Origin: Parcubacteria group bacterium Greene0714_7 | GTDB taxonomy: Bacteria > Patescibacteriota > Minisyncoccia > Phycocordibacterales > Phycocordibacteraceae | Direction: 5' to 3' | NCBI GenBank assembly: GCA_007378985.1 | Contig: VMHB01000001.1 | Coordinates: 252-64,251 of the forward strand | DNA: 64,000 nucleotides | Part shown: positions 4,374-62,964 of the stretch, piece by piece | How positions within the stretch are numbered: position 1 is the first letter of the stretch | Layout: each line of letters opens with the position of its first letter | The notes under the pieces: model-generated | What the model was told of the DNA's origin: nothing | Database searches by the model: none | Seen by the model: only the letters and a program-made list of their open reading frames with translations | Translations under genes and position numbers: made by a program

Positions 4374-5951
4374 TTGTACCATGGGTTTTTCTATAGTTTT
4401 CCAAGTGCACGTTTGAATATGAGACATCATCATTACTATTCAGATGGTTTCGCTATTTTTTTTATTGTGACGCTCTTGGCGTTGATTATGTACTCTGCAT
4501 TTTCAAATCCGTATGGTCGAATGAGTCGCGTTAAGAATCCATTTGAAACAAGGCGACAAGGGAGAACCATTGCTCTTTTGAAGCATTTCAATCTTAAAGT
4601 ATGTAAGTCCTTCTTTTGGCATGGTTTTGCATACGCGAAATGTGCGTGGCATATCGTTTCCAATGTGTGTGCTGGTGAGAAGGCAAGAAGTCGAAGTTTA
4701 GAGGGTGTTATACGCGATATTCATAAGGTACGATTTAATCCAAAGAGGCCGTATTTGATTTCAGGAGATCATTTTAATGTTTTTTATCCAAGGAATCTTG
4801 GTGTGTTTTATTATGCAACTCTTGATCCGAGAACTGCACTAGGAAAAAGTGATTGGGAAAATAGACAGAGAATCTACCTTCAAACAGTTGCCTATGCAAT
4901 CGCTGCATTTACAAAAAATGGCGATTGCACTACCACCATTGTGCCAGTAGGACCTCGAGCAGTGAGTTGTATAAATATCTACCATTACCCATCCGATGCT
5001 CTTTATGGTGTTCTTTTTGGTCTATCTACGCTTATCGACAACTCTTTTTTTGTGAAGCGTTATCCCTTTGAATCAGAAAATAGTTTTGGGCTTGAGACAA
5101 AGACTGCTGCTGGAAATCTTCTCGAGGAGAATCGTGATGCACTAGCGCTTCTTGTTACGAAATACTACAACCGAGTTTTCGATACGGAAACAGGCTTAAT
5201 TAAAAGGGATATTCATATTTCATCAGCAAAAGACATCACGGTGCGTACGAGTGCGTTTTATGACAATGTTATTTTTTGGAAAACATTTATGTTGGCGCGG
5301 ACACTAGGTATAGAAAATATACCTGCAGTTGACCTCCCTAAGTTAAAGACCCGCATTCTCGAAACCTATTGGCAAGAGACGGAAGGGTACTTTTTAGAAG
5401 ATAGTTCTTCTGAGGGGGTAGCAGGAAAATATTACTCCGCAGATTGGCTAGTTGCATACTTTACTGGGTTCTTGGATGTCACAAAGTCTGATGAGAGGCG
5501 ATATCTTGAGCGCGCAACTCTCTACACGATACAGGAAGGGATTGATATGCCATTTCCTTTGCGGTATCAACAAACCAATAGGGCGTCACGCCAAGTACCC
5601 ATTGTCCGTCTTTTTGTTGCGTCCTATGGAGGTACCGCTATATGGAGCTTCTGGGGGGCGGAGTTTATAAAAGTTCTTGTTGCATTATCTGAATATGATA
5701 ATCAACATCTATTCTTAGAGCGTGCTGCACGGCATATTGGTGCATATTCAAAAAATATGGTTCGTTACTATGGATATCCTGAAACCTACGATACGGCAGG
5801 GAATATGCTCCGCACTCCTTTTTATAATAGTGTTCGACAGACTGGCTGGGTAGTTGGGTATGAGCAGGCAGTCGCAATGTTTAAATCAATGTCGACCCGA
5901 TTAGAAGTTGCTAGATCAGATTCTATTCTTGAGAGTATATGTACAGTGTGA
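4374..5951 (+). CDS. Hypothetical membrane-anchored protein. May be an alpha/alpha-toroid glycoside-hydrolase-like fold, but this is a low-confidence guess.
   Basis: One N-terminal transmembrane helix and a long soluble domain. Family not recognised. Confidence 0.4.
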   Translation: MYHGFFYSFPSARLNMRHHHYYSDGFAIFFIVTLLALIMYSAFSNPYGRMSRVKNPFETRRQGRTIALLKHFNLKVCKSFFWHGFAYAKCAWHIVSNVCAGEKARSRSLEGVIRDIHKVRFNPKRPYLISGDHFNVFYPRNLGVFYYATLDPRTALGKSDWENRQRIYLQTVAYAIAAFTKNGDCTTTIVPVGPRAVSCINIYHYPSDALYGVLFGLSTLIDNSFFVKRYPFESENSFGLETKTAAGNLLEENRDALALLVTKYYNRVFDTETGLIKRDIHISSAKDITVRTSAFYDNVIFWKTFMLARTLGIENIPAVDLPKLKTRILETYWQETEGYFLEDSSSEGVAGKYYSADWLVAYFTGFLDVTKSDERRYLERATLYTIQEGIDMPFPLRYQQTNRASRQVPIVRLFVASYGGTAIWSFWGAEFIKVLVALSEYDNQHLFLERAARHIGAYSKNMVRYYGYPETYDTAGNMLRTPFYNSVRQTGWVVGYEQAVAMFKSMSTRLEVARSDSILESICTV

Positions 5952-6006: not shown

Positions 6007-6681
6007 GTGTGTATGTTTCTTATGGAAAATATGCGAAGGCGGGTGAATCGCGGGAACATCGAAGGGTGGTTAATTCTTATCTTAACAGTGTTACTTTTCG
6101 TGTCTCTCTGGCTCTTTCCTAGCTCTTTTTCACTTCCATCAATTTTTAATAATATAACGCTTATTGCAAACGCAAGCATTCCCGAAGGTTGGCGTGAGTT
6201 TGATTCTACAAAACTTGGTATTTCTATTTTATATCCACCAGGATATGTCGTTGATTCTTCATCTGTACATACGGAGCTTGGTTCGCGTCAGGGCAGTAAA
6301 GGAGTGCAATTTAAGATTCCTAAATCATATACAGAGGGAAACAATCTCTCGCATATCGATACCGGCGTTTCTGTAGAGATACTTCCTCGTGTAGCGCCAT
6401 GCACTGGCACCAGTTTTGTTGAAGAAGGTTTGGTATCGAAGACATTAAAAGAAAAAGGTACCACCTACTTAATGACAAAAACTGCTGGTGCTGGCGCAGG
6501 TAATTTCTATGAAGAAACCGTGTATGTGATTTCAGGAAGTGTGCCTTGCACCGCAGTGCGCTACTTTTTCCATTCTACGAACATTGGCAACTATAGTCCC
6601 GGCACAGTAGAGGCGTTCGATAAGCAGGCGCTACTGAAAGAATTTGACGCGATTCGCTATTCACTCGTACTAACCCGATAA
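6007..6681 (+). CDS. Hypothetical secreted protein
   Basis: Signal-anchor-like N-terminus. Confidence 0.4.
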   Translation: MCMFLMENMRRRVNRGNIEGWLILILTVLLFVSLWLFPSSFSLPSIFNNITLIANASIPEGWREFDSTKLGISILYPPGYVVDSSSVHTELGSRQGSKGVQFKIPKSYTEGNNLSHIDTGVSVEILPRVAPCTGTSFVEEGLVSKTLKEKGTTYLMTKTAGAGAGNFYEETVYVISGSVPCTAVRYFFHSTNIGNYSPGTVEAFDKQALLKEFDAIRYSLVLTR

Positions 6682-6700
6682 TTTAAAATTGATTCAACTT

Positions 6701-12304: not shown

Positions 12305-13094
12305 TATGAAAACTACTCTCTCAAAAAAGGTTCGCGTTCTTGTCTTTTCCGGCTATGGCCTCAACTGTGAAGAGGAGGCGCGCTATGGTTTCGAGCTTGC
12401 AGGGGCAGATGCTGAAATTGTGCACATTAATGACGTCATTGATGGGAAGGTTAAGCTCGAAAAATATCAAATTCTTGCATTCCCTGGAGGCTTTGCATAT
12501 GGGGATGACACTGGTTCGGGTAAGGCATATGCAAACCGTGTAAAAAATCATCTCTCGAAGCCTTTGCAGAAATTTATCAAAGAAAAGAAGCTGATCATAG
12601 GAATCTGTAATGGTTTTCAAATCCTTACACAAATAGGACTTTTGCCAGGCGCACTTACATTCAATGAGTCCAATCGCTATTCTGATAGATGGGTTGATAT
12701 GGAAGTTGAAGGTACGAGCCCTTGGCTAAAAGGGATCAAGAAACTATCAGCACCTATTGGACACGGAGAGGGGAGGTATGTGGCTGATGCAGATACTCTT
12801 CTCAATCTAAAGAAAAAAAATGAAGTAGCACTTCGTTATGTGAAAGGTGAGACGGCAAACTATCAAGACTTGCCTGCAAACCCGAATGGCGCAACAGAAA
12901 ATATTGCTGGCGTACTTTCCCATGAGGGAAGAGTGTTTGGTTTGATGCCACATCCCGACCGTGCACTTTTTACAACAAATCTTCCACACTGGCCGATTCT
13001 TAAGGATCGTTCAAAGCGTTCTGGGGAAATTTTTCCTCAGTATGGTGCAGGTCTCCAGATATTTAAAAATGGAGTGGACTACTTCAATAATTGA
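12291..13094 (+). CDS. purQ: Phosphoribosylformylglycinamidine synthase subunit PurQ (glutaminase)
   Basis: GICNGFQIL with catalytic Cys. HPDR/HPE region. Confidence 0.9.
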   Translation: MHKNNMKTTLSKKVRVLVFSGYGLNCEEEARYGFELAGADAEIVHINDVIDGKVKLEKYQILAFPGGFAYGDDTGSGKAYANRVKNHLSKPLQKFIKEKKLIIGICNGFQILTQIGLLPGALTFNESNRYSDRWVDMEVEGTSPWLKGIKKLSAPIGHGEGRYVADADTLLNLKKKNEVALRYVKGETANYQDLPANPNGATENIAGVLSHEGRVFGLMPHPDRALFTTNLPHWPILKDRSKRSGEIFPQYGAGLQIFKNGVDYFNN

Positions 13095-13282
13095 CTTACC
13101 CGAAGCTGTTGATACCATTACTGTATGATCTTGTATTTTGTAGCAACCAGCGGAGTAATGATGGTAATGATGTTCTCAATGAGAAGGCTGGTTTTGCGCA
13201 CGGTACACATTTAGTTCACAAAGCTCTCGGACAAAACCAGCCTTCGACCCACGAGGGCTTTTTTAAATCAAAACAAAATATG

Positions 13283-30221: not shown

Positions 30222-30375
30222 AAAACTTCCAGCTTTTAGGTGTCGGGTGTCAGATTTCAGGCGATACCTCATCGTGTCCGTAAGTGATGTTTCATCGCCT
30301 CCGTAGGGAACAGGCTTCGTTAAGTCCATAGGGATCATAGGAAAATATTCTTTATTTTTCTCTGAGATACGAAAA

Positions 30376-47642: not shown

Positions 47643-47653
47643 CCACTTCGCCT

Positions 47654-49093
47654 CTAAAGCTCTATTTTCCTAAATTGAGAAGATTGTGCGCACGACACGC
47701 ATCCAGTTTGAGACATATCGTGTTTGGTTGCATTGGTAATCCATTCCGCAAGATTGTTTGTATCTTGAATTTGGTCGCTTGAACCCAATACTATTATTGC
47801 CATTCGACGAGTTGCATCACCGACTTTGAGTGAAAGTACAGAGACTATTGTGTCTTCGGCGGCTCTCGTGTGGCCTACCTTGCCACCTTGAAAGGGGGCA
47901 CTACTGGCTGGCGCATTTACATTTTTAATAGTGTATTTTGAGCCATCTTCTGCCATGACGGTTTTTGTTTGTGTGCGTGTAATGTTGAGTACAAATGATT
48001 TTTTATTTGCTAGGTACACTGCAAGACGGAATAAGTCTTCAGGGGTAGAAATATTTTCTGGTGAAATGCCACTGGTGTCCGCATATGTCGTTGAGGTCAT
48101 ATCAAGAGCGGTTGCGGTAGTGTTCATCCATCCTACAAAACCTTTTGACCCATAATAAGAGGCAAGTGAATCGGCTACACCGTTACTTGATTGCATAAGT
48201 AGGGGATAGAGTAGATCGCCAACCGAAAATACCTTCTCGTTTACATCATCCAGATTTGGTGGGTTTACGAGGCTACCTTGGGGTACAGAGAGTTTTTTAT
48301 CGAAGCTTATAATTTCGTTTGCAACAAGGGCAGTCATTAATTTAGTCACAGATGCTATGGGTCGCTTTTCCGTTGCATTTCTCTCAGCATATACGCTCCC
48401 TGTATCCATATCAGCAATGAGGTATGCATCCGCATCTATGTGAGGCTCGGGGAGGGTATAGAGCGCAAGTGGCGGTAAGGGGTCTGATTGTTTCGCATCG
48501 TACACAAATATTTTTGTTCCTCGATCGGCAAACGCAAAAACTTTTTTTGCATCCTCTGTTTCAAGCTTGATACACCCACCAGAGAATGTTGCTGATGTGG
48601 GTGTGCCGTCTGGATAATATGTTTGTCCGTGTATAAAATAATTGCCATAGAATTGCATACTAAAAGGCATGTACACTTTGCCAATCGTTGAGAAGTGGTT
48701 TTCTTCTTTAGTTTGGATATTATAAAAACCACTCGGTGTTTCCCATGGCGTACCTTGTTTGCCTTTCATCACAATCGGATATTTGGCTGTCGCTGTTCCA
48801 TTCTCGTATAAATAGAGTTTCATGTTCGTCAAATCAGCTGCGATAAATTTTCCTATCTGCGGAACCGTTTCAGGGATAGTGAGTGCATTAATTGTTCTTT
48901 CTGAAGTGGTACTCGCGAGTGCTAGTGTTACATTTGATACACCTTGCTCTCGCACCAAAGATTTAGAGGCGCTCTCGGATTGAATATAAAGGAATGCGTA
49001 GTGTGCTCCAGCTCCAATTGCGAGACACAGCGTCATTACTTTGAGAGTAAAAGTAATCCCTCTCCAATCAAAAGAATGATCAATATCGTTCAT
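47654..49093 (-). CDS. Bifunctional-looking cell-wall enzyme: an L,D-transpeptidase (YkuD) domain fused to a D-alanyl-D-alanine carboxypeptidase (S11) domain
   Basis: N-terminal half has HGQ..SGGCIKL. C-terminal half has SVTK (SxxK), SSN and KVGHT. Confidence 0.75.
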   Translation of the reverse strand: MNDIDHSFDWRGITFTLKVMTLCLAIGAGAHYAFLYIQSESASKSLVREQGVSNVTLALASTTSERTINALTIPETVPQIGKFIAADLTNMKLYLYENGTATAKYPIVMKGKQGTPWETPSGFYNIQTKEENHFSTIGKVYMPFSMQFYGNYFIHGQTYYPDGTPTSATFSGGCIKLETEDAKKVFAFADRGTKIFVYDAKQSDPLPPLALYTLPEPHIDADAYLIADMDTGSVYAERNATEKRPIASVTKLMTALVANEIISFDKKLSVPQGSLVNPPNLDDVNEKVFSVGDLLYPLLMQSSNGVADSLASYYGSKGFVGWMNTTATALDMTSTTYADTSGISPENISTPEDLFRLAVYLANKKSFVLNITRTQTKTVMAEDGSKYTIKNVNAPASSAPFQGGKVGHTRAAEDTIVSVLSLKVGDATRRMAIIVLGSSDQIQDTNNLAEWITNATKHDMSQTGCVSCAQSSQFRKIEL

Positions 49094-49205
49094 TTATAGT
49101 TGGTATTGTACGGTATTTTAGATAAGGACATGAGTCATTGGATGAAATACCTCATGTGTCCATGCGCTATACTTTACGAAGGCTATTACGTAACTAATTT
49201 TTTAT

Positions 49206-54436: not shown

Positions 54437-56251
54437 ATGAAAAATATCCGTAATTTTTCTATCATTGCTCATATAGACCACGGGAAGTCTACTCTGGCTG
54501 ATCGCATGCTTGAGGTGACTAACACCGTACCTACTCGTAAGATGCGTGAGCAGGTTTTGGATCAAATGGATTTGGAGCGAGAGCGTGGCATTACTATCAA
54601 GATGCAACCCGTTCGAATGAACTACACTCTGAACGCTACAAACTACGTTCTTAATCTTATCGACACTCCAGGGCACATAGATTTTGCGTATGAAGTATCG
54701 CGCGCGCTTACTGCTGTCGAAGGCGTCCTTCTCTTAGTTGATTCGACACAAGGTATTCAAGCGCAGACACTCGCAACACTTGCCATGGCCAGAGACGCTG
54801 GGTGTGTCATTATTCCCGTTTTGTCTAAAATCGATATGCCAGCATCGAGAGTGCCTGAGGTTCGCGGAGCTCTGGCGCGACTTTTGAATGTTGAGGAATC
54901 GGAAGTCTTATCAGTCTCAGGAAAAACAGGAGAGGGGGTGGCAGAATTACTTGTCGCCATTGTTGAGCGTGTGCCACCTCCTACCACTTCATATCCTAGG
55001 GCAGGGCAGGGAGGGAGAGCGCTTGTGTTTGATTTTTCATATTCAGAACATCGAGGGGTGGTGGCGTATGTGCGTGTGACTGATGGGGAGCTCCGTACTA
55101 AAGACACAATCTCTTTCATGGCAGTGGGAAAGAAAATGACTGCACTTGAGACGGGATGGTTAGTGCCAGCGGAATTTCCTACCCCATTTCTTTCAGCGGG
55201 CGACATAGGATATGTGGTGACGGGAATAAAGGAGCCTGGAGTTGCGCTGGTGGGTGACACTATTAAGGCAGGAAACTCTACCTTGCCCGCCTACGAGGGC
55301 TACAGTACTCCTAAGGCTGTGGTGTGGGCCTCTTTGTACCCTGACAGCCAAGATGGATTTACGCTTCTTAAGCAGGCACTTTTACGACTTAAACTCTCGG
55401 ACGCAGCACTTTCCTTTGAAGAAGACGGCTCTTCAGTACTTGGAAAGGGTTTTCGGTGTGGTTTCTTGGGTATGCTCCATATGGAAATTGTGACTGAACG
55501 TCTAACACGCGAATTTTCTATTACCCCAGTCATCACTACGCCCTCAATTATGTATGAGGTAACTGATACAAGGGGTAAGACAGAACAAATTTACACACCA
55601 ACACAATTTCCTCCGCACGGCATGATTGCGTCAGTTCGTGAGCAGTGGGTGAATATCGCAATTATTATTCCACCTTCCTACCTGTCACCGATGACACAAT
55701 TGCTCTATGAATACGAAGCAACAATACATTCCGCCGATCTTTTTGGTTTATCAGGATATGGAGATGACAGACTTCTCATTAAAGCTGAGATGCCACTTCG
55801 TGAATTAATGCGTGGATTTTTTGACCGTTTGAAAAGCGTGTCTTCTGGTTTTGCATCGCTCTCGTATGAGTTTGGAGAGTTTCGTCCCGCAACCGTTACA
55901 AGGCTCGATGTCCTAGTGGCAGAAGAGCTAGTGCCTGCATTTTCACGCATTATTTCGGAGCGTCGGGTTGAAGAAGAGGCTCGTGCACTTGTTGAAAAAC
56001 TTGCAAATACTTTACCTCGTCAGCAATTTGTTCTTAAAATACAATCACAGGCGAACGGTCGTATTATTGCATCACGCTCTCTCTCGGCTATGCGTAAAGA
56101 TGTGACGAGTGGTTTGTACGGTGGAGATGTTTCAAGAAAAAAGAAGGTGCTTGAAAAACAGAAAAGAGGAAAGGAGCGACGAGGAGGGCATGCAAAAGTA
56201 CAAATACCACCAGAGGTATTTTTGAAAATGATAAAACCAGACAGTAACTAG
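54437..56251 (+). CDS. lepA: Elongation factor 4 (LepA)
   Basis: IRNFSIIAHIDHGKSTL and DTPGHIDF. LepA C-terminal domain. Confidence 0.95.
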   Translation: MKNIRNFSIIAHIDHGKSTLADRMLEVTNTVPTRKMREQVLDQMDLERERGITIKMQPVRMNYTLNATNYVLNLIDTPGHIDFAYEVSRALTAVEGVLLLVDSTQGIQAQTLATLAMARDAGCVIIPVLSKIDMPASRVPEVRGALARLLNVEESEVLSVSGKTGEGVAELLVAIVERVPPPTTSYPRAGQGGRALVFDFSYSEHRGVVAYVRVTDGELRTKDTISFMAVGKKMTALETGWLVPAEFPTPFLSAGDIGYVVTGIKEPGVALVGDTIKAGNSTLPAYEGYSTPKAVVWASLYPDSQDGFTLLKQALLRLKLSDAALSFEEDGSSVLGKGFRCGFLGMLHMEIVTERLTREFSITPVITTPSIMYEVTDTRGKTEQIYTPTQFPPHGMIASVREQWVNIAIIIPPSYLSPMTQLLYEYEATIHSADLFGLSGYGDDRLLIKAEMPLRELMRGFFDRLKSVSSGFASLSYEFGEFRPATVTRLDVLVAEELVPAFSRIISERRVEEEARALVEKLANTLPRQQFVLKIQSQANGRIIASRSLSAMRKDVTSGLYGGDVSRKKKVLEKQKRGKERRGGHAKVQIPPEVFLKMIKPDSN

Positions 56252-56281
56252 GGTTTAGGGTATAGCGTTTAGTGTTTAGGG
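56248..56281. repeat. Family 1 repeat copy R4 (CTAGGGTTTAGGGTATAGCGTTTAGTGTTTAGGG)
   Basis: Supplies the lepA TAG stop codon. Confidence 0.7.
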
Positions 56282-56308
56282 AAGCACACCTTCAATACAA
56301 TACGAAAT

Positions 56309-56938
56309 TCAAAATTGTTTTGCGCGAGCAAGCATTTCCGGATAGATTTTACGCAAGATGTTCATAGTGTCTGAATTATTTGCATACTCTCCACTCTTTT
56401 TTCTTATAGCTTCAACAAGTTCATCTCCTATTCCAAATCGTCGCCACATTTCACAGGCATCATTGATTCCATACCGAGAGGGCTCTCGATGGGTCTCTGA
56501 GAAAATTTTATTATATTGCCTCACTTCTTTTTCTAACTCACCGTTTGGTGTTTCAACATATTCAAGAGCAGGCAGGTAATCTGTGAAATTAAATTTTCTT
56601 ATGTCATCAATATCCTGTAAGACTTTAAGCGCACTTCTTTTGATCCAAGTCTCGCTATTTTGACCTTTAATTCCCTTAAAGGCATCGGGAATCCATTCTG
56701 TCGTTATCTGATATTGCATATTGTCACAGACGAGGTGTACGAACCAGCCTTTTTTAAAGTCATCTAATTTAAAAAATGCATCATCTAAATCGGTAGGATG
56801 CGTGACTGTACGATCAATACCTGTTACATATCTACTATCAGGATAGAGAGTCCCAGCTATATATTTCTGCGTATCAGAAACACCGTACTTTTCTTTCAAA
56901 TCTAATGCGAACCGGATATGTGTAGCGGCGAGTGCCAT
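56309..56938 (-). CDS. Hypothetical protein
   Basis: ORF flanked by the inverted family 1 copies R4 and R5. Confidence 0.5.
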   Translation of the reverse strand: MALAATHIRFALDLKEKYGVSDTQKYIAGTLYPDSRYVTGIDRTVTHPTDLDDAFFKLDDFKKGWFVHLVCDNMQYQITTEWIPDAFKGIKGQNSETWIKRSALKVLQDIDDIRKFNFTDYLPALEYVETPNGELEKEVRQYNKIFSETHREPSRYGINDACEMWRRFGIGDELVEAIRKKSGEYANNSDTMNILRKIYPEMLARAKQF

Positions 56939-56983
56939 ATAAACATTGTATCAGGGGCAGTAAGTAGCTTTAGAGTCAGATTT

Positions 56984-57020
56984 CCTCTAAACGCTAAACC
57001 CTAGTGGCTACCCGCTAATT
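56984..57020. repeat. Family 1 repeat copy R5 (CCTCTAAACGCTAAACCCTAGTGGCTACCCGCTAATT)
   Basis: Inverted orientation relative to R4. Confidence 0.65.
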
Positions 57021-57141
57021 AAAGACTGGAAAGTAGAGCAAGATCATACTTGCAATGACCAAGACCGCTACAACGCTCCAGACTATTTGGACCTTTCCTT
57101 TGTGTTTTTTATCGAACAACATAGAGGCAGTATACAATGCG

Positions 57142-57212
57142 TTAGCCAATAGCCACTAGGGTATAGGGTCTAGGCTCTCCCTAATAACTAGTGGCTATAC
57201 CCTAATGGCTAA
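57142..57212. repeat. Family 1 repeat copy R6 (TTAGCCAATAGCCACTAGGGTATAGGGTCTAGG...ACTAGTGGCTATACCCTAATGGCTAATTC)
   Basis: Nearly identical to R1 in its first 30 nt. Confidence 0.7.
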
Positions 57213-57215
57213 TTC

Positions 57216-57590
57216 ATGACTCCCAAACAATGGAAACGGCTCTTTGCTCGCACTCTGCTCTGGGCAGGTTTTTTGGTTGGTGGGGCAATTTTGATTGTGT
57301 TTGCCTTTACTACATGGAATGTGTACATAAAAGAACGAGAGGCTCGGATTCAGCATAAAAATGAGGTGCATGCACTATCTGAGCTTTCAAATCGGAAAGC
57401 CACACTCACTGAAAATCTACAAAAATTTGATACTCCACGAGGAATTGAAGAAGAAGTGCGAAAACGCTTTCCTGTAGCAAAACCAGGAGAAGAGGAGATT
57501 ATGCTTATTGCTCCAAAACCCACTCCCAAAGCAACAAGCACTTCCAGCGCTACTTTTTGGAAAGGGTTGCTAGGCTGGTGGCCATGGTAA
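57216..57590 (+). CDS. Hypothetical single-pass membrane protein (FtsL/DivIC-like topology)
   Basis: N-terminal transmembrane helix and a coiled-coil-like region. Confidence 0.4.
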   Translation: MTPKQWKRLFARTLLWAGFLVGGAILIVFAFTTWNVYIKEREARIQHKNEVHALSELSNRKATLTENLQKFDTPRGIEEEVRKRFPVAKPGEEEIMLIAPKPTPKATSTSSATFWKGLLGWWPW

Positions 57591-58201: not shown

Positions 58202-58273
58202 TGCCCTCAGCCAGAATCGAACTGACATCCTCTCCTTAGGACGGAGTAGCTCTATCCATTGAGCTATGAGGGC
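58202..58273 (-). tRNA. tRNA-Arg (anticodon CCT)
   Basis: Acceptor GCCCTCA/TGAGGGC, D-arm GCTCAATGGATAGAGC, anticodon loop GTCCTAA, T-loop TTCGATT. Confidence 0.7.
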
Positions 58274-58325
58274 GTTTGGGCAAATGTTGCGTGCCCTAGT
58301 CTAACACGATGCTATACTTTTTTGC

Positions 58326-58616
58326 ATGGATGAACAAAAATTAAGCGAGATGTACGAGTTTACAAAGGAGAATAACCATATGCTCAAAGCAATGCGCCGT
58401 GATGCATTTATTGGAGGCATTATAAAGTTCGTAATTTGGGTTGCTTTGTTTATTGTATTGCCTTATATAGCATGGCTCTTCATTCAACCGTATTTGCAAG
58501 GAGTAGTGGATACCTATCAGAATGTTCAAAAAACGACGAGTGCCGTGAGTAACACTACAACCGCTAATCTTTCTAAAATAGATGAGCTTTTAAAGAAGTT
58601 TGGGGGTGGGCAGTAG
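58326..58616 (+). CDS. Hypothetical small membrane protein
   Basis: One transmembrane helix. Confidence 0.4.
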   Translation: MDEQKLSEMYEFTKENNHMLKAMRRDAFIGGIIKFVIWVALFIVLPYIAWLFIQPYLQGVVDTYQNVQKTTSAVSNTTTANLSKIDELLKKFGGGQ

Positions 58617-58658
58617 AACCTAGATTTTAGCCATAAATTCGGCTAGAATATGCAGATT

Positions 58659-60720: not shown

Positions 60721-60803
60721 ATTAGCCACTAAGTGTTAGCCACTAGCCATTAGGGAAGTATGCGATAGTTTCAGAACCCTAAACCCTAATGGCTATACCC
60801 TAG
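60721..60803. repeat. Family 1 repeat copy R7 (ATTAGCCACTAAGTGTTAGCCACTAGCCATTAGGG...CCCTAAACCCTAATGGCTATACCCTAG)
   Basis: Overlaps the last codons and the stop codon of valS. Confidence 0.7.
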
Positions 60804-62964
60804 TTTTTGGCCAGGGAGCAACCATTAATAGCTTGGTCTCCTTTTGAGGAAGATATGTCCATATCTCTTCAGTTACGAATGGCATGAATGGATGGAGGAG
60901 CCTTAGGAAGTGGTTCAGTGTCTCGTAGAGGAGTTTTTGCCTGGAGGCTTTCTCTTTTTCATTAGCTCCCTTGAGTATTGGTTTTGATGCTTCAATTATT
61001 TCGTCCGCAAATCTGTGCCAGATGAAGTGGTAAAGAATATCAAACGCAAGGTCGATTCTGAATTTTTCAATGTTTTCAGAAACACTCTTTGCCATGTCAG
61101 CTACTTCTATAGCTATCTGCGTATCTTCTCTTGTATACGGAGCATCTTGGGTATTACCACCACCATTCTCAAGGACAAACCGAGCTATGTTCCAAATTTT
61201 ATTTGCGAAGTTTTTATATCCCCGTATTTTTTCTTCAGAAATTTTACTATCGGTTCCTGGTGCCATGCCCGCAATTAAAGAAACACGCACTGCATCCATA
61301 CCGTACTTTGCCGCCATATCCAATGGGTCAATGTTGTTGCCTAAGGATTTTGAAATCTTTCGGCCTTGTCCGTCACGAACTAATCCATGAAGATAGACTT
61401 TTTTGAACGGCACCTCATCGAGGAGGAATCCACTCATGAGAATCATGCGGGCTACCCAGAAGAAGAGAATATCGTATCCAGTTTCAAGGATTGATGTCGG
61501 GTGGAATGTTTTTAAATCTTTTGTTGTGTTAGGCCAGCCCAAGGTCGAGAATGTCCATAATCCAGCAGAGAACCACGTGTCCAAAGTATCTGGGTCTTGT
61601 TCCCACCCGGCGCCTTCTGGTGCAACTGCCCCAACATATGTCTCTTCACCTCGATACCATACTGGTATACGATGCCCGAACCATATTTGGCGTGAAATAC
61701 ACCAATCACGAAGGTTGTCTATCCAGTGGAAGTATGTTTTTTCGTATCTCTCAGGTGTAATGTCTACTGCCTTACTCTCGACGGTCTCCCGCATCATTTT
61801 TCTTAGGGTTGTTTTCTTTCCATTTTTTTCAAACTCAGCATTAACCCCCACAAACCATTGACGCTTTACTTGAGGTTCTATAGTGCCTCCACCACGACTG
61901 TTTGTTGCAATGTTGTGGACATATTTCTCATCAATTTTATCAATGAGCCCTTTTGCTTTGAGCTTCTCAATGATTAGTGGACGAGCTTTTTTGATATGGC
62001 TCCCTTGAAATTCTCCTGCTATAGGGAGGAGAAGTCCGCGGTCGTCTATGACTTGCTCTATATCAAGCCCGTGGCGTTTCGCAATCTCGAAGTCCACCAC
62101 CGAGTGCGCTGGTGTAATGGTCATTACACCCGAACCCATTTCCATGTCAGCTGCTTTGTCTTTAATGATTGTTGCAGTGATGGGTCCGTTTATCCACTCA
62201 AGATCAAATGTCTGTCCATGTTTCCATTCGCTGTACCTCGTATCATCTGGATGCATCACAACATATTTATCACCGAACTTTGTTTCAGGGCGTACAGTGC
62301 CGATGACAAATGGTCCGTATTTGAAATAGTAGAATGGAACGGATTCTTCTACGTAGTCCATTTCATCATCCGAAACGGTAGTTTGGAGTTTTGGGTCCCA
62401 GTTTACGATTCGGTATCCGCGATAAATGAGACCAGCATTGTACATTCGTACAAAGGCCTCCATGACGGCATGGTATCTCGCGCTATCCATAGTGTAGGCG
62501 TAGCGAGAAAAATCTAGTGAAGCGCCGACACGTTTCATCTGTTCAATAATAGTTTTTTCGCTCTCTTTCACGAATACATCTATTCGTTTCAAAAGCTCAT
62601 CTCGTCCAAGGTCATGACGGGTTTTTTTCTCTTTCTTATAGATTTCTCCCTCCACCTTTGACTGGGTAGCGATTGCAGCAGAGTCGGCGCCAGGAATCCA
62701 GAGTGTTTTTTTGCCACTCATGCGAGCATGGCGAATGAGTATGTCTTCAATAACGAGCATCAATGCTGAGCCCATATGGAGAATGCCGGTAACATTTGGT
62801 GGGGGAAGTATCATTGAAAATGACTCCGCGCGTTCTTCCGTACCTTGTGGTGTAACAATAGGTGGGAGGTTGTCGGGATTGAAATAGCCACTTTCTTCCC
62901 AGCGTGTATAGATGGCCTCTTCCGTTTCTTTTGAATTATATGGTTGTAGAAATTTTGGATCCAT
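60793..62964 (-). CDS. valS: Valine--tRNA ligase (compact form)
   Basis: PPPNVTGILHMG (HIGH region) and KISKSLGN (KMSKS region). Confidence 0.85.
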   Translation of the reverse strand: MDPKFLQPYNSKETEEAIYTRWEESGYFNPDNLPPIVTPQGTEERAESFSMILPPPNVTGILHMGSALMLVIEDILIRHARMSGKKTLWIPGADSAAIATQSKVEGEIYKKEKKTRHDLGRDELLKRIDVFVKESEKTIIEQMKRVGASLDFSRYAYTMDSARYHAVMEAFVRMYNAGLIYRGYRIVNWDPKLQTTVSDDEMDYVEESVPFYYFKYGPFVIGTVRPETKFGDKYVVMHPDDTRYSEWKHGQTFDLEWINGPITATIIKDKAADMEMGSGVMTITPAHSVVDFEIAKRHGLDIEQVIDDRGLLLPIAGEFQGSHIKKARPLIIEKLKAKGLIDKIDEKYVHNIATNSRGGGTIEPQVKRQWFVGVNAEFEKNGKKTTLRKMMRETVESKAVDITPERYEKTYFHWIDNLRDWCISRQIWFGHRIPVWYRGEETYVGAVAPEGAGWEQDPDTLDTWFSAGLWTFSTLGWPNTTKDLKTFHPTSILETGYDILFFWVARMILMSGFLLDEVPFKKVYLHGLVRDGQGRKISKSLGNNIDPLDMAAKYGMDAVRVSLIAGMAPGTDSKISEEKIRGYKNFANKIWNIARFVLENGGGNTQDAPYTREDTQIAIEVADMAKSVSENIEKFRIDLAFDILYHFIWHRFADEIIEASKPILKGANEKEKASRQKLLYETLNHFLRLLHPFMPFVTEEIWTYLPQKETKLLMVAPWPKTRV

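Follow-up and report, generated by a model that had tools for sequence, protein, structure and literature searches.

A single-gene segment in the centre of a palindromic heptamer element downstream of lepA in a Parcubacteria lineage

Genomes of the candidate phyla radiation (CPR, Patescibacteria) are small and streamlined, and how they acquire accessory genes is little understood. In Parcubacteria group bacterium Greene0714_7, a stretch of 64,000 nt of contig VMHB01000001.1 (hereafter the window, with positions counted from its first letter) carries next to lepA an open reading frame (ORF) of 209 aa, ORF209 (56309-56938, minus strand, start MALAATHIRFALD). It stands between two oppositely oriented repeats, R4 on the left and R5 on the right. 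Are these repeats the ends of a gene cassette, as the original prediction proposed from the sequence, or does the gene sit in an element that was there before it? Comparison with close relatives showed that a palindromic intergenic element of 5+5 degenerate heptamers was there before the gene, and that R4 and R5 are its two arms. We favour, with a probability of roughly 0.7, the gain of an accessory gene into this element over a mobile cassette with ends of its own.

The lepA locus with and without ORF209

The lepA gene (EF4; 54437-56251, plus strand; Pfam GTP_EFTU and LepA_C) terminates with a TAG codon (56249-56251) which is at the same time unit 1 of R4 (56249-56283, plus strand). This arm is composed of five TAG-phased heptamers, TAGGGTT TAGGGTA TAGCGTT TAGTGTT TAGGGAA. 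R5 (56983-57017, minus strand) also contains five, TAGCGGG TAGCCAC TAGGGTT TAGCGTT TAGAGGA, the first of them carrying the TAG stop of a hydrophobic 35-aa mini-ORF (MLFDKKHKGKVQIVWSVVAVLVIASMILLYFPVFN; 57015-57122, minus strand). The translated mini-ORF is conserved (L181-L184 have it annotated, as a gene of 34 aa, and it can be aligned in L185) and probably represents a real small membrane protein. Likeness between arms lies in their shared architecture (5 x 7 nt, TAG in phase, G/C core), complementarity being only 73-81%. The position of ORF209 between the inverted R4 and R5 was confirmed in the sequence.

Close relatives were recovered through members of protein clusters and look-ups of exact proteins; a scan of genome contigs with LepA gave a nearest match of 60-62% identity, useless for strain comparison. 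ORF209 was absent from every close relative recovered (LepA 92-100% aa identity; at least 4 lineages on 10 contigs, namely L090/L091, L181-L184, L178-L180 and L185). At 90% identity or more, the ORF209 cluster has a single member, against 11 for LepA, 12 for the DivIC-like protein and a range of 11-17 over LepA, DivIC-like and Grx. In three relatives, LepA and the DivIC-like protein bear consecutive GenBank accessions. At the nucleotide level, lepA of L181-L184 is 98.1-98.5% identical to the window (98.5% for L181, up to the stop codon) and that of L178-L180 about 90%, while L090/L091 show 96.9% identity over 55635-56282. Alignments of these three groups to the window end at 56265-56282. They resume at 56980 for L090/L091 and L181, and at 57043 for L178-L180, past a differently built element of their own.

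What lies between these limits in the relatives is an empty site. In L181 the two arms, the left one homologous to R4 as it is in L090, are adjacent (CTAGGGTTTAGCCAATAGGGGGTTAGGGTATAGGGAG AAAGAA TTAGGAGTTTATTTCCTAACGACTAAACCCTAATGGCTAGTGGCTAAC), and therefore R4 and R5 are part of the host spacer, not of the insert. Empty-site elements fold as a single hairpin (z -2.9 in L181, z -4.3 in L178), and the intact element sits between the convergent stops of lepA and the 35-aa mini-gene; neither R4 nor R5 folds by itself (z +0.9 and z -0.3). Only the Greene0714_7 lineage carries, in the unpaired centre of the element, a single-gene segment of ~685 nt (56285-56969, minus strand; limits approximate, ~5 nt, from BLAST and by-eye alignment of the junctions), which drives the arms 700 nt apart. 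Its point of insertion is ~10-15 nt left of the element apex, in unpaired sequence immediately 5′ to an apical mini-hairpin. This mini-hairpin of the original element (TTAGAG...CTCTAA, 56970-56990, in the DNA fold of 56960-57025) now lies to the right of the insert and has its counterpart in TTAGGAGTTTATTTCCTAA, the apex sequence of the intact element in L181.

In the most distant relative, L185 (77% nt identity), the lepA TAG and the mini-ORF stop lie directly next to each other, without any intervening element. Since L185 is without the element and nearer relatives have it intact, the site probably had no element at first, then acquired a palindromic one, and this was finally split by ORF209. 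Across strains ORF209 is thus a presence/absence unit whose limits coincide with R4 and R5. A cassette found everywhere in the same orientation, with repeats lacking in other genomes, is not what we observed: close relatives do not have ORF209.

Repeats are classic sites of mis-assembly, and contigs of several relatives stop at these elements (e.g. L089), so an unrelated gene might have been placed here by a metagenome contig mis-joined at the repeats. The filled allele was however seen in three concordant assemblies, the NCBI contig of a metagenome-assembled genome (MAG) that forms the window, Logan SRR8863435 (L088/L096) and ENA ERZ27284378 (L097), the latter spanning the right junction with 100% identity over 978 nt. 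As the three agree, the filled allele is not a mis-join, and an artefact is scarcely credible.

The original prediction went further and took these repeats as delimiters of small gene cassettes, with ORF209 and a lemA module as examples. R4 and R5 would then be the terminal inverted repeats or recombination sites of the cassette itself, by which such modules are mobilised or inverted. A presence/absence polymorphism bounded by inverted repeats agrees with this model, as does an ORF209 homologue of one unrelated genome (L003) found within perfect 29-nt direct repeats. The empty sites largely refute it, both arms being already adjacent there, so that the insert did not bring them. At about 69 of 74 homologue loci, flanking repeats, direct or inverted, did not rise above background; the notable cases were L003, L005, L156 and two tRNA fragments. 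Furthermore, lemA is conserved backbone, in the same place and orientation in relatives, while the repeats around it differ: it belongs to a 15-member cluster (at least 90% identity) and is present in L186, which has no copies of a second repeat family (TAGGCGACGCTTCGTCGGATCCGAAGGGATCAT, see below) there. Neither the insert nor a ~11-kb contig from the same sample contains a recombinase or transposase gene, and the window holds no second copy of ORF209. We consider a mobile cassette very unlikely: what was observed in the sequence is confirmed, and its interpretation partly supported.

Established cassette and transposon systems were also considered and rejected. Integron attC sites carry RYYYAAC...GTTRRRY cores with insertion at R', whereas the units here are of NTAGSSN type and the insert lies near the palindrome centre, not at its base. 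An integron cassette array was discarded since no integrase appears in the gene lists of the ~11-kb contig, which covers ~9 kb upstream and ~1.1 kb downstream of ORF209 (VKOR, YkuD, DUF1761, TPR, MurJ, LepA, DivIC-like and Grx genes). As for ends of an insertion sequence (IS), a miniature inverted-repeat transposable element or a transposon, the arms stay at empty sites, and direct reading of the insert ends, CACACCTTC... and ...GTAAGTAGCT, showed that they are not mutual inverted repeats. Nor does ORF209 provide the enzyme, as no transposase or integrase domain was found in it with Pfam, NCBIfam, PADLOC or PHROGs.

Origin of the inserted segment

The insert has a GC content of 38.2% compared to 43.8% for the window. 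For ORF209 itself the values are 38.4% overall and 31.9% at third codon positions, against 46.4% and 39.5% for lepA. Its nearest homologue, only 71% identical, was found in L007 in an unrelated and repeat-free context. We infer that ORF209 was gained, because the outgroup and at least three nearer lineages are without the gene, its GC is low and the nearest homologue is this distant and placed elsewhere.

The opposite polarity would have ORF209 already inside the element in the common ancestor and precisely deleted in all other lineages, possibly once with subsequent spread by recombination. These strains do recombine, as their mosaic identity shows, and a single deletion allele could spread; moreover, as seen from L097 and L088, the population that has the filled allele keeps it stably. 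Inverted arms are however unable to mediate a recombinational deletion, and after such a loss a well-formed palindrome would need to have been restored. Neither element nor gene is present in the outgroup L185, no relative has a homologue more than 71% identical among 15 billion proteins, and the GC of ORF209 is below that of its surroundings. Ancestral presence followed by loss is on these grounds quite unlikely.

How far might the foreign segment extend? Identity to the nearest strain, L181, is 98-99% in lepA and falls right after the first repeat unit. From 56980 to ~58040 it is ~90% (72-91%) across the mini-ORF, divIC, tRNA-Gly and grx, and from ~58040 it is back to 97-100%. The divIC-like septum protein gene (57216-57590, plus strand; Pfam DivIC with E 5.5e-5, under the cut-off), which lies inside this block, is 92% identical to that of L181 at the nucleotide level, compared to 98.5-99% for lepA and for 58250-58650. 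The mini-ORF of the window is closer to the outgroup L185 (85%) than to near relatives. ORF209 is positioned at the left end of the resulting ~1.8-kb divergent block (56256 to ~58040), and this block, flanked by 98-99% identity on its two sides, suggests an import by homologous recombination that carried ORF209 along.

The proposed scheme involves two steps. ORF209 would have reached this genome from a more divergent relative, as part of ~1.8 kb exchanged by homologous recombination between the lepA stop codon and the terminator of grx (56256 to ~58040). Primary integration may have occurred earlier in the donor lineage, where the palindrome centre, prone to form hairpins, would have been broken and repaired or have undergone illegitimate recombination; break and repair there is our guess as the most economical account of the first entry. 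The repeats would act as a fragile or permissive landing site rather than as recombinase sites, and ORF209 would be a stand-alone all-alpha protein, possibly a metal-dependent hydrolase, with no part in its own mobility. Both steps have precedents: REP elements are documented as insertion targets (Tobes & Pareja 2006, PMC1525189), and changes of gene content via homologous recombination are documented in Neisseria (Kong et al. 2013, PMC3787668).

Several points weigh against this scheme. Gain versus loss was polarised by parsimony over a handful of metagenome-derived and clearly recombining lineages. Divergence of the arms between filled and empty alleles makes the exact junction and any target-site duplication unreadable. 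The divergent block could instead stem from a higher local rate of evolution, or from a separate recombination event that has nothing to do with the insertion, and the donor allele was found in no lineage beyond Greene0714_7. A hairpin break as mechanism of primary integration is pure inference, and the assignment of ORF209 as a hydrolase is weak. Finally, a heptamer element coincides with only one of the three strain-variable spots of the region, and a 'hot spot' is for this reason not demonstrated.

The two other spots are strain-specific genes nearby with no repeat association. L178 carries a strain-specific 194-aa gene (12478-13262, minus strand, no Pfam or PADLOC match) placed precisely between the stop of divIC and the tRNA-Gly 3′ end, which are 2 nt apart in the window. 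A variable island follows the VKOR gene and extends to DUF1761 (window 47643-49197; L178 1084-4854; L181 2199-4783). It contains a 479-aa YkuD/Peptidase_S11 gene in the window and, in relatives, a sigma-70 factor, DUF5670, YggT and others; the L181 island additionally encodes a cytochrome-domain protein.

The ORF209 protein family

The family of ORF209 is conserved and consists of single-domain proteins of ~210 aa, with members in Parcubacteria, Uhrbacteria and other Patescibacteria. Homologues form 123 clusters at 90% identity, and at 50% identity 224, 342 or 874 clusters for E-value limits of 1e-30, 1e-10 and 1e-3, respectively. The genomic context is highly variable, with no recurrent neighbour gene among 77 loci, and the family was unmatched in phage, plasmid and IMG/VR collections.

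In line with the original prediction, which could assign no function from motifs, searches of Pfam, NCBIfam and PADLOC with ORF209 were negative, and PHROGs gave one match without significance (E 0.23). Searches of PDB sequences with the single protein and with a profile returned only chance coiled-coil matches. As for a structure prediction, proposed together with the original prediction as a check, the AlphaFold (AF2) model is all-alpha and confident (pLDDT 95.4, pTM 0.91), but Foldseek retrieved no neighbour of it in PDB (best E 0.83, TM at most 0.25) or BFVD.

Residues H7, A11, G29, Y32-P33-D34-S35, R43, H47, G64, H68, D72, K105 and E134 are invariant in the family. Among them, the spacing of H7, D34, H47, H68-x3-D72 and E134 resembles, and on the sequence level is compatible with, that of the metal ligands of zinc-dependent phospholipase C (PLC, PF00882). 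Weak N-terminal matches to PF00882 (Zn_dep_PLPC) were obtained for 16 of 43 family members (E<1; best E 1.8e-5), all below the gathering cut-off (25.2 bits for the best member, P0120, against 26.8), and ORF209 itself has no PF00882 match. Comparison by hhalign with a Bacillus cereus PLC sequence gave no match (probability 0.3), and unlike PF00882 enzymes the ORF209 model was found by Foldseek to resemble no PLC or P1-nuclease structure. A metal-dependent hydrolase serves as a working assignment of low confidence.

Could such an enzyme have opened its own site? ORF209 might be a selfish metal-dependent nuclease, S1/P1- or PLC-like, that cuts hairpin or cruciform loops and is copied into the break in the style of a homing endonuclease. 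Its position in the unpaired centre of a hairpin element would fit, as would the invariant His, Asp and Glu residues with the weak PF00882 similarity, and the variable context without conserved neighbour. Other family members however do not reside inside palindromes, inverted-repeat scores being at background at ~70 of 74 loci, and the family is single-copy. With no similarity to known homing-endonuclease or nuclease folds, and a 1.8-kb divergent block that points to ordinary homologous recombination, we regard this proposal as most improbable.

In L003, the direct repeat around the ORF209 homologue (GGTTTTTTATTACGTAATACATTACGTAA, 5855-5883 and 6659-6687) holds the only four TTACGTAA palindromes of 12.6 kb; a common operator and a duplication of att type are two possible readings of it.

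The heptamer elements and their relation to known systems

We also examined the element family to which R4 and R5 belong. With at most 2 mismatches, TAGGGTWTAGSG occurs 38 times in the window against 9.2 expected, a count reached by none of 100 shuffles. Segments with a period of 7 nt are 7 in number in the window, lags of 5, 6, 8 and 9 giving 0-1; in close relatives there are 8 such segments against 0 at other lags. About 11 arms are distributed over 8 sites between 41.9 and 63.7 kb of the window. The third copy of the original prediction, R6, placed ~120 bp beyond R5, is present but turned out to be two arms forming a hairpin: a complete palindromic element in the spacer between mini-ORF and divIC (57143-57211) with head-to-head arms at 57143-57177 (plus) and 57177-57211 (minus). 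Its hairpin (57135-57218) is stable (-35.6 kcal/mol, z -4.66), and two other doublets also form hairpins (60725-60810, z -3.1; 41925-42005, z -2.8). Rfam returned only tRNAs and one chance microRNA match for the whole window and the locus, and in a promoter/terminator scan of the locus nothing exceeded the shuffled background. On reading the sequence, the idea of G-quadruplexes in the arms was dropped, as was that of a UAG-triplet array bound by a HutP- or TRAP-like protein, no search for such a protein having been made.

Further arms are located in the groES-groEL spacer (41933-41997), after groEL (43653-43687), in the lemA-htpX spacer (44816-44827) and in the prsW-valS spacer (60723-60802). 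A three-unit arm, TAGAACC TAGATTT TAGCCAT (58614-58634), lies just upstream of tRNA-Phe and starts at the TAG stop of a 96-aa ORF (58326-58616). Direct reading of the sequence showed that the TAG stops of lepA, groES, the mini-ORF, valS and this 96-aa ORF all fall in unit 1 or 2 of an arm. One arm (63623-63655) resides inside tsaD (62976-63965, minus strand), in-frame and antisense to the gene, where it encodes ..VPLNPKRYTLNAM.., and the copies are hence not restricted to gene boundaries. At the same codon position, tsaD of L178 contains a different heptamer stretch (CTGAAAG units) that is 14 aa shorter, with more than 50 aa identical on each side.

Relatives hold heptamer elements at the same sites (lepA, divIC and tsaD), with units that differ between the window, L090, L181 and L178; those of L178 are TAGGTTC, TAGCTTT and CAGCTKT. 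The divIC-like gene is 99.2% identical between L181 and L090, yet the element preceding it in the mini-ORF-divIC spacer is a CAGCTKT palindrome in L181 (12013-12100) and of TAGCCA/TAGGGT type in L090 (830-885). This indicates replacement of whole elements, not point divergence. Among the 186 loci fetched, the four-unit TAGGGT-type pattern was restricted to loci of the Greene0714_7 strain group. The heptamer repeats are thus a lineage-specific, REP/BIME-like 'dialect' that turns over fast between strains.

Elements of the same design appear to be widespread in CPR genomes, with units specific to each lineage. An element with AAAAGTG units lies directly after lepA in L010 (9788-9878), and lag-7, often palindromic elements with still other units occur in L126, L147, L172, L020 and L026. 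The window itself contains a palindromic pair with ACCAAGA units (1135-1230) and a lone lag-7 segment with CAGSTKT units (30226-30260), not shown to be a palindrome. The second repeat family, TAGGCGACGCTTCGTCGGATCCGAAGGGATCAT, has 33-nt arms, 97% complementary (43681-43713 and 44829-44861), which enclose two small ORFs and lemA; further copies were found in the window (30255-30340) and in L178 (16345-16378). Heptamer arms are attached to copies of this family, and the resulting mosaic is similar to bacterial interspersed mosaic elements (BIMEs).

As TAG is kept in phase in the arms, every reading frame meets a stop codon. One may then speculate, although we would rather doubt it, that TAG-phased heptamer palindromes form a previously undescribed functional class of CPR intergenic element. 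If so, stops in all frames of both strands together with a hairpin would make them bidirectional insulators of translation and transcription that supply genes with their actual stop codons. Orthologous sites would be rewritten into lineage dialects even with 99%-identical flanks, in-frame residence in the essential tsaD would be tolerated, and the elements would offer landing pads to accessory genes such as ORF209 in streamlined genomes.

Apart from this speculation, the lepA locus of these groundwater Parcubacteria provides a clean case, near base resolution, of a gene that one lineage has and none of its sampled sisters shares, located in the centre of a hairpin repeat and associated with a recombination tract, with no mobility genes. 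It also documents in Parcubacteria heptameric REP-like elements that evolve much faster than their flanks, give stop codons and can enter coding sequence, with relevance for breaks in MAG assemblies, for strain typing and for how such repeats spread. The ORF209 family, with several hundred clusters, a confident model and no structural neighbour, is a reasonable target for structural and biochemical work.

Which known systems do these elements resemble? Like the repetitive extragenic palindromes (REP) of proteobacteria and their composite forms, BIMEs and REPINs, they are short repeats in many dispersed extragenic copies; inverted doublets form stable hairpins, and their location is intergenic, including inside operons (groES-groEL). 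Both can serve as landing site for foreign DNA (for REP, see PMC1525189). In contrast to REP, single arms are not palindromic and consist of five tandem degenerate TAG-phased heptamers. No cognate REP-associated tyrosine transposase (RAYT, an IS200/IS605-like Y1 transposase) turned up in the 64-kb window of the 256-kb contig, no PF01797-directed search having been made. Insertions targeting REP described so far are IS elements, whereas the insert here is a cargo gene without transposase.

Heptameric intergenic simple sequence repeats (SSRs) are the second point of comparison. GGGAATC in Xanthomonas, GGGGA(T/C)T in Nostoc and the short tandemly repeated repetitive (STRR) sequences of Calothrix belong to this type (Rehm et al. 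2015, PMC4692102), and the Xanthomonas and Nostoc repeats vary between close relatives (PMC4692102). The Parcubacteria elements share with them the 7-nt tandem period, the intergenic location and inverted arrangements, and occupy the same site in related strains with variable length and sequence (window, L090, L181 and L178). They differ in units that are strongly degenerate, only TAG and a G/C core being kept (e.g. TAGGGTT, TAGCCAC, TAGCGTT and TAGTGTT), in a fixed arm length of about 5 units, in having no G-quadruplex potential, the G-tracts being too few, and in one copy being in-frame inside an essential gene, tsaD.

The insertion itself resembles the 'minimal mobile elements' reportedly first described in Neisseria, by strain-variable gene content between the same conserved flanking genes and by a recombination tract in the flanks with no mobility genes. 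Unlike in Neisseria, natural competence or DNA uptake is not known for this organism, and a single filled allele was observed. Taken together, the heptamer repeats combine features of REP/BIME-like elements and of heptameric SSRs, and we therefore regard them as a variant of these and not as a new category.

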